A DNA stretch of 64,000 nucleotides. Source: a virus. Lineage: Duplodnaviria; Heunggongvirae; Uroviricota; Caudoviricetes. Of the stretch, positions 13,670 to 14,008 are shown piece after piece. The stretch lies in the IMG/VR virus record IMGVR_UViG_2721755651_000007. One strand, given 5' to 3'. The notes under the pieces are model-generated. The model did no database searches. It had not been told where the DNA came from and saw only the letters and a list, made by a program, of their open reading frames with translations. The translations under genes were made by a program, and so were the position numbers. Each line of letters begins with the position of its first letter. Within the stretch, counting starts at the first letter, position 1.

Positions 13670-14008
13670 GGTCGTGCGCCGGACACGGATAAGAATCCGG
13701 TACTGACAGTTTACTGAAAGGATATTTCCCTGAAAAGTCAGTGCATAACGCGAAAGCGTACGGCGAAGCTCTTTCCCTTAGAAGGCTTGTCGTTAGATTT
13801 CTTCGAACGTGCGCTTCCGGTTGTGGCACTCCGCGAAATGGCGCGGCGGTAAGTATGGCGGGGTTATTCCTTCCCCATTGAGGACACCGGGTTGTCAGGT
13901 TGACCATACGCTTAAGTGACAACCCCGCTGCAACGCCCTCTGTTATCAATTTTCTGGTGACGTTTGGCGGTATCAGTTTTACTCCGTGGCTGCTCTGCCG
14001 CCCTTTTT
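13670..14008 (+). ncRNA. candidate structured noncoding element (339 nt) ending in an intrinsic terminator
   Basis: conserved with 60622..60960 at equal length; indels break every reading frame; terminal GC hairpin plus T-run on plus strand. Confidence 0.3.

Follow-up and report, generated by a model that had tools for sequence, protein, structure and literature searches.

The conserved noncoding block of two E. coli O157:H7 prophages is the DicF locus and carries a pseudoknotted RNA domain upstream of the small RNA

The 339-nt block present twice in the window (the whole stretch of 64,000 nucleotides that was analyzed) is the already known DicF locus, i.e. the untranslated middle of a prophage dicBF operon. 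We hold with high confidence that in each of two lambdoid prophages it forms the central part of an early-left operon of dicBF type, where it encodes the Hfq-dependent small RNA DicF together with its precursor. The initial annotation had interpreted the block not as a gene but as a structured RNA or a processed leader, a reading that fits DicF and its precursor in the dicBF untranslated region. The present value of the result lies in the correct annotation of two DicF copies, one of them below the Rfam threshold. What is new at this otherwise well-studied locus is a single element, a pseudoknotted and strongly conserved domain immediately 5' of DicF. The DicF intermediate of 190 nt does not begin with a passive leader; its 5' two-thirds form this covarying domain.

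The two copies of the block lie in the same window at 13670-14008 (copy A) and 60622-60960 (copy B), each 339 nt long. They had been described as equal in length with small indels, and global alignment bears this out, with 306 identical columns out of 344 (89%) and 10 gap columns. The indels are offsetting and non-triplet. They fall at the apex of a long hairpin, which has 74 nt in copy A and 76 nt in copy B, and in the loop segment of the DicF terminator, with 74 nt in copy A and 72 nt in copy B; the 2 nt gained at the apex and the 2 nt lost in the terminator segment thus account for the equal totals. Identity between copies is 90% over the 5' hairpins, 80% over the long hairpin with its variable apex, 98.3% over a 115-nt core and 85% over the 3' segment with the terminator. 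Two elements pointed out from the start were readily located: the CCGGA/TCCGG stem with differing loops is found at 13679-13700 and 60631-60652, and the plus-strand GC hairpin followed by a T-run at the end of the block is the DicF terminator, at 13966-14008. Only one of the two limits initially given to the block holds. As judged from the alignments, the 5' limit (13673) is a real mosaic boundary. Upstream of it copies A and B are unrelated (55% identity), and the same homology start recurs in K-12 and in thousands of other genomes; some block homologs begin only at ~13744-13747. The 3' limit at 14008 is by the same alignments arbitrary, since the copies remain 97.6% identical past the block end, over the 169 nt (14009-14177) that lead to the dicB ATG at 14178. 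Matches to the block were obtained in 4734 of 5426 complete E. coli genomes, and in sequence terms its conservation is far beyond chance.

The genes around the block stand in the dicBF order, in which the repressor and promoter come first, then a ydfA-family gene, the untranslated region with dicF, dicB and ydfD, and finally the recombination genes and the integrase. Strain TR01 of E. coli O157:H7 is 100% identical to the window, and in K-12 MG1655 the match to positions 13673-14282 (93%) falls between the prophage Qin genes ydfC and dicB. Upstream of the block, RefSeq annotates the identical O157:H7 sequence with a repressor of the LexA family, a ydfA-like gene (DUF1391) and a hypothetical gene, and the same record lists dicB, DUF1482, RecE and an integrase remnant. 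The genes downstream of the block had been called kil-like; in copy A they are annotated instead as a variant allele of the cell-division inhibitor gene dicB (14178..14366, +) and as a ydfD-like DUF1482 gene (14363..14551, +), each coinciding with an ORF. In copy B, ORFs and alignment of the copies identify a K-12-like dicB allele (61130..61318, +) followed by ydfD (61315-61506, +). The dicB gene of copy A is a divergent allele, 73% identical to that of copy B.

A promoter-like site, TTGACC-17-TAAACT, was found at 12393..12421 (+) between the repressor and the ydfA-like gene, in the same relative place as K-12 dicBp (TTGACC-17-TAATCT). By this analogy it is likely the counterpart of dicBp and the source of the copy A transcript; the corresponding promoter-like site of copy B is at 59175-59204. 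Directly upstream of the block no plus-strand promoter-like site was detected at copy A or copy B, which speaks against a stand-alone small RNA gene of ~340 nt with its own promoter at the 5' edge of the block. Such a gene would agree with the sharp and recurrent homology boundary at 13673, and also with phage P1, where the 115-nt domain starts ~40 nt after a mapped promoter, an arrangement close to a stand-alone small RNA gene in that phage. In K-12, however, DicF is derived from a polycistronic transcript started at dicBp, and primer extension and RT-PCR revealed no internal promoter (bioRxiv 10.1101/2023.04.14.536235). The discrete transcript of ~340 nt initially expected from the block is also at odds with the K-12 species, which measure 190, 72 and 53 nt and are cut from a transcript starting ~800 nt upstream. 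We consequently rate a stand-alone gene as very improbable in the two prophages, and retain the dicBF-type operon.

Compared with K-12 Qin, the O157 prophages carry other ORFs in place of ydfB and ydfC, among them, in both copies, a convergent antisense ORF located between the upstream genes and the block. These small ORFs, at 13404-13625 (-) and 60338-60571 (-), adjoin the blocks upstream and are convergent with the early-left operon; they encode 73 and 77 aa, are mutually unrelated and have no Pfam match. The one of copy A is preceded by a promoter-like site at 13641-13612 (-). Antisense transcription of this kind could lower or alter transcription into the block, and the ORFs may represent morons interfering with the transcription of dicF.

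The description of DicF as an antisense RNA regulator reportedly dates from 1989-1990, and multiple copies of it are said to occur in EHEC and to be tied to virulence (pchA/LEE, stx2). In copy A, DicF occupies 13951..14008 (+), i.e. a 53-nt core at 13951-14003 and the U-run of the Rho-independent terminator; it matches Rfam RF00039 at 13952-14003 with 75 bits, for a gathering threshold of 48. In phage Tritos, DicF is annotated at the homologous position. With respect to the DicF/dicBF locus of K-12 Qin (RF00039; Faubladier 1990; Balasubramanian 2016; Ragunathan 2023), copy A differs at one base of 53, the untranslated region is 93% identical, and gene order, terminator and the positions of processing landmarks are alike; the O157 locus differs by its copy B DicF, which is below the Rfam threshold and lacks the predicted ftsZ pairing, and by the divergent dicB of copy A. 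The copy B variant (60905..60960, +) scores 43.5 bits against Rfam DicF (E = 3e-8), just below the threshold of 48, and is therefore better described as a divergent variant than as a canonical member of the family.

The two DicF copies share the 5' single-stranded seed UUUCUGGUGACGUUUGG, with 20 matches over 20 nt, followed in both cases by a terminator hairpin and U-run. Copy B keeps these 5' 20 nt but has another terminator loop, from which the ACUCCG anti-SD block is missing. According to the literature, DicF targets the ftsZ, xylR, pykA and manX mRNAs, and pchA in EHEC; its 3' part pairs with ftsZ and pykA, its 5' part with xylR. We predicted pairing with the ftsZ leader of O157:H7. Over the ribosome binding site (RBS), copy A reaches -29 kcal/mol, a value equalled by 15 of 500 shuffled sequences, whereas copy B reaches -18.5 kcal/mol, which is background (344 shuffles out of 500 do as well). 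The RBS window was used instead of full-length DicF, for which shuffled sequences score equally well in RNAduplex against ftsZ. With the ACUCCG loop missing and ftsZ pairing at background in copy B, the two copies are predicted to be functionally different: copy B DicF keeps the 5' seed and is predicted to have lost ftsZ repression while retaining the targets of that seed. The dicF copies of EHEC may thus not all be equivalent. Several of them have been noted in different prophages of O157:H7 Sakai and EDL933 (PMC5069750), and a review counts four in EHEC (PMC7873438). In O157:H7 TR01 (NZ_CP033605.1), 7 places match the 115-nt domain and 6 match the DicF segment, so that at least one copy of the domain seems to be followed by a non-DicF cassette. 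These 6 matches compare with the four dicF copies given in the literature for EHEC Sakai and 86-24.

Conservation of the block had been considered not to be protein-driven, and a search for a conserved frame in a larger set of homologs came out negative. The coding alternative would be a minus-strand protein, represented in copy A by an ORF of 95 aa (13662-13949) and in copy B by an ORF of 124 aa (60565-60939). In many homologs the minus-strand frame is open for up to 114-116 codons, and some phage records annotate hypothetical proteins there. The frame nevertheless switches within the block between copies A and B and among other variants, and common 1-nt indels (CCCC versus CCCCC) shorten it to 77 codons. 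Gap runs in the alignment of homologs are mostly of 1, 2 or 4 nt, and substitutions are distributed over the codon positions as 73/82/83, without excess at the third. The frames of the block have no match in Pfam, and RefSeq calls no gene over it in K-12 or O157. As no protein-coding signal was found in the block on either strand, we consider a minus-strand protein hardly credible; the untranslated dicF region accounts better for these observations.

The 115-nt domain was characterized with a covariance model (R1) and a consensus fold. The result is a covarying four-helix, pseudoknotted domain in both copies, at 13820..13934 (+, 161 bits) in copy A and at 60774..60888 (+, 156 bits) in copy B; these are the only two hits of R1 in the window. 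In copy A, helix P1 (GUUGUGGC/GCUGCAAC; 13820-13827/13927-13934) encloses helix P2 (CCGCG/CGCGG; 13831-13835/13842-13846), helix P3 (13860-13863/13873-13876), a variable hairpin whose loop is CU-rich, and helix P4 (GGGUUGUCA/UGACAACCC; 13889-13897/13917-13925), which has a 19-nt loop. The pseudoknot, indicated by covariation, pairs GUAUGG (13853-13858) with CCAUAC in the P4 loop (13904-13909); all of these are on the plus strand. In a MAFFT alignment 96.8% of the cells are paired and 8 of the 32 pairs have changed on both sides, a score reached by 1 of 500 shuffles. An alignment of 101 model hits, fitted to the structure, gives 97.3% of paired cells and 9 compensatory pairs out of 32, a score reached by none of 500 shuffles; sliding this alignment as a control leaves 34-57% of the cells paired. 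The sequences are closely related (effective number 1.34). P3 exists in at least 6 different stem sequences, all foldable. In the phage P1 lineage a U-A pair of the pseudoknot is replaced by C-G (GCAUGG/CCAUGC), with U-G intermediates. Changes in P2 are singletons, one-sided or disruptive and never compensated, so this helix is supported by conservation only. The minimum-energy fold of the 190-nt RNA, computed from the single sequence, differs from the fold supported by covariation. In such single-sequence folds of the block and of the 190-nt RNA the domain pairs with the 3' arm of the terminator, a pairing we rejected as the terminator variant of locus L009 does not support it. The domain has no match in Rfam even at E = 10, and no description of it was found in the literature searched.

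Around the domain, other parts of the block can be related to the processing of DicF, as documented for K-12 Qin. There, dicF sits in a "long untranslated region" of the dicBF operon, and RNase III yields a 72-nt DicF by cutting read-through RNA (PMC5069750). The 190-nt species is also an RNase III product, cut at 813/814, and the 53-nt DicF depends on RNase E; no ydfABC-dicF-dicB species of greater length was seen in Northern blots (bioRxiv 10.1101/2023.04.14.536235). In copy A, the region 13673..13741 (+) forms two hairpins in the consensus fold of 41 homologs, H1 (CCGGA/UCCGG, 13679-13700) and H2 (CUGAC/GUCAG, 13703-13741); their stems are conserved in the 41 homologs with no compensatory changes, which is consistent with the structure and does not prove it. 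A long imperfect hairpin follows at 13744..13825 (+). Among the same 41 homologs its apex is hypervariable and its base invariant, so that covariation speaks neither for nor against this pairing. By analogy with K-12 we propose this hairpin as the substrate in which an RNase III cut, at ~13816/13817, would define where the 190-nt pre-DicF begins. Two counts converge on this position, which lies at the first bases of the 115-nt domain: 190 nt counted back from the terminator lead to ~13816, and with the K-12 dicBp -10 box at L001 1823-1828, transcription would start at ~1835 and position +813 would fall at L001 2647, i.e. position 13817 of the window. All processing sites on the window are placed by this kind of transfer from K-12. 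Downstream of the domain, a single-stranded AU-rich linker (13935..13950, +) would contain the RNase E site known from the K-12 literature, DicF beginning at 13951. Beyond the terminator, the dicF-dicB spacer (14012..14161, +) consists of a 20-bp duplex (14012-14031/14142-14161) enclosing three hairpins. Its fold has a z-score of -5.0 and it is 97.6% identical between copies. The 3' end of the 72-nt DicF (~14022) falls in the middle of the duplex, which we propose as the 3' RNase III site; a cut there would yield the 72-nt DicF and leave dicB with a short leader. In copy B, alignment and folds place the 5' hairpins and the long hairpin of RNase III type, whose apex differs and has 2 nt more, at 60625..60779 (+), and the spacer at 60964..61113 (+).

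Taken in order, these elements suggest the following course. As in K-12, a repressor-controlled promoter ~1.3 kb upstream would be transcribed through the small genes into the block. The nascent RNA would form the hairpin 13744-13825, and RNase III, on which processing depends in K-12, would cut its 3' arm at ~13816/13817. GUUGUG, the 5' strand of P1, has a second partner in the RNase III hairpin, CAUAAC (13744-13749), and can pair with only one of the two at a time; cleavage would therefore free GUUGUG and let it close P1 of the domain. If the course established in K-12 applies, most transcription would then end at the DicF terminator and give the stable 190-nt species composed of domain, linker and DicF, from which RNase E would release the 53-nt DicF by cutting in the AU-rich linker. 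Read-through RNA would presumably be cut by RNase III within the 20-bp spacer duplex into 72-nt DicF and dicB mRNA. DicF would finally pair with the target mRNAs named above. At locus L248 (1627-1754, -), both the RNase III hairpin and the P1 5' strand have been lost by a natural deletion between two CGCGAAA repeats; as L058 lacks this strand too, helix P1 may be dispensable.

The distribution of the domain was examined beyond the window. It is present in 4315 of 5426 complete E. coli genomes (about 80%), in up to 8 copies, and among the RefSeq matches listed none has an annotated feature under the domain. BLAST against phages located it in the cdtI, Stx2c-type, Ayreon and 2H10 phages, ~290 nt after PL, as well as in Salmonella phage F1055 and in a Rac-like phage, upstream of kil. 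It was also found in P1/P7 and in ~500 P1-like plasmids, ~40 nt after the C1-controlled Pban, in a region that GenBank labels "dicF-like region". This P1/P7 region has the same P2, P3, P4 and pseudoknot (R1 83-87 bits) and an intrinsic terminator after them; it differs by the absence of the DicF seed, by another terminator, by its position at the 5' end of the transcript, and by the presence downstream of tRNA genes and ban instead of dicB. Pattern scans of IMG/VR returned ~120 domain loci with 69 distinct sequences, and every one has an intrinsic terminator ~30-75 nt after the domain. The seed and terminator loop that follow it exist in at least 8 different versions. Each of 97 phage or prophage loci gave exactly one R1 hit (3 false-positive loci gave none), and phage records have one BLAST place each for the domain. 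Diversity of the domain outside Escherichia was drawn only from phage and plasmid collections; in a contig scan with the 16-mer CAGGTTGACCATNCGC, the 80 loci listed, E. albertii aside, belong to unrelated taxa and are apparent chance matches. The possibility that the alternative cassettes are Pas small RNAs was discarded, since Pas small RNAs belong to the late regions, close to Q and the lysis genes. Among these cassettes, which include the cdtI, L008, L035 and L058 types, that of L035 is likewise predicted to pair with the ftsZ RBS.

Two observations on individual cassettes are worth recording. In phage vB_Apl-pPE4 (L258 2090-2262), one domain is followed by two tandem copies of the cassette of linker, seed and terminator; although labelled as an Actinobacillus phage, this record has Rac-like genes (DicA-type repressor, YdaT, Kil, exodeoxyribonuclease VIII). 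In phage cdtI (L003 2640-2690) the cassette ends, directly after the terminator, in the boxA-like CCGCUCUUUUUACAAAACAG; boxA of the rrn operons is UGCUCUUUAACAA.

As to the role of the domain, the most likely is that of a scaffold for folding, stability and processing, which would protect and delimit the small RNA precursor. The domain is 98% identical between copies, more than DicF itself, and this suggests a function more specific than that of a scaffold. We consider, tentatively and at somewhat less than even chances, that it is an autonomous and so far unrecognised RNA module with a specific function of its own, joined to at least 8 interchangeable cassettes of which DicF is one. Candidate functions of such a module are a platform for processing and launching a modular family of phage small RNAs, a sensor or an element acting on the polymerase that would set read-through into the toxic early genes dicB and kil, and an RNA acting in trans through the CU-rich P3 loop. 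That P1 and other phages share the domain but carry different cassettes suggests a modular family of phage small RNAs extending well beyond DicF, and the domain could serve as an anchor leading to unannotated small RNAs of prophages.

Another explanation would assign to the domain a cis control of the terminator that follows, as a put-like element or as an attenuator responding to a ligand or protein, which would set read-through into dicB, kil or ban. In all of the eight annotated contexts (K-12 Qin, O157, Tritos, cdtI, Salmonella phage F1055, Rac-like pPE4, P1, P7) the domain indeed lies in the leader of a repressor-controlled early operon, with an intrinsic terminator within ~30-75 nt. No N homolog is annotated in the early-left region of cdtI, and for a related N-less phage with the same set of left-operon genes a put-type antitermination was suggested by the authors (PMC12315714). 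A complex, pseudoknotted fold, more conserved in sequence than the small RNA after it, would suit such a role, as would the GGCGGUA motif of the domain, which repeats the 5' arm of the DicF terminator. The HK022 putL and putR sites are comparable in being structured cis RNAs in leaders of repressor-controlled early operons, upstream of terminators, in phages without N. However, the put RNAs are of ~70 nt, with two stem-loops, and form a left/right pair, whereas the domain is found in a single copy per phage and has no right-operon partner. A full scan with the covariance model, R1 being run unfiltered over HK022 24000-33000, returned nothing at putL or putR (best hit ~7 bits, E > 2). The short words GCGCGGCGG and UCAGGNUGA, common to the domain and putL, were considered as a sign of put homology and set aside in the absence of a covariance-model match. 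Domain and terminator are separated by a spacer of variable length and sequence, the terminator of P1 has no GGCGG arm, and that of L009 covaries (GGUGG/CCACC) while the domain is constant. Unlike what is expected from put, termination at the DicF terminator is efficient in K-12: RNAs ending there accumulate and the longer ydfABC-dicF-dicB species is undetected, which argues against a strong constitutive antitermination. On balance we consider a cis control of the terminator unlikely, and a scaffold of the DicF precursor remains the preferred role of the domain.

Among other known systems, SroC and CpxQ resemble DicF in that an intrinsic terminator stops transcription prematurely inside an operon and an endonuclease then trims the 5' side. 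DicF differs from them by the use of RNase III on both sides and by an intermediate that has a large, conserved, structured 5' domain. The dicF-dicB spacer aligns with STnc100/PasD (RF02076) over the closing helix and the CACCNGGAGGCACCNGGCAC hairpin; with 34.5 bits in copy A and 32.5 bits in copy B for a threshold of 47, it is not a member of this family, and STnc100 is located in the late region rather than in the early-left operon. This spacer module also precedes kil in the Rac-like phage and is present in P7/D6.

The window contains several further elements. A full STnc100 (175 bits) is found at 48463-48671. Next to it are phage tRNA genes and the anti-sRNA AgvB, whose 56.6 bits barely exceed the threshold, these elements spanning 48402-48671 and 48784-49013; a second tRNA pair lies at 712-961. 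Each prophage has one hok/sok-type toxin-antitoxin locus, at 5255-5429 (-) and 53640-53789 (-), with sok scores of 113 and 104 bits. Finally, an ALIL pseudoknot (121 bits) at 7906-8022 (-) corresponds to an IS3-family frameshift element within prophage A.
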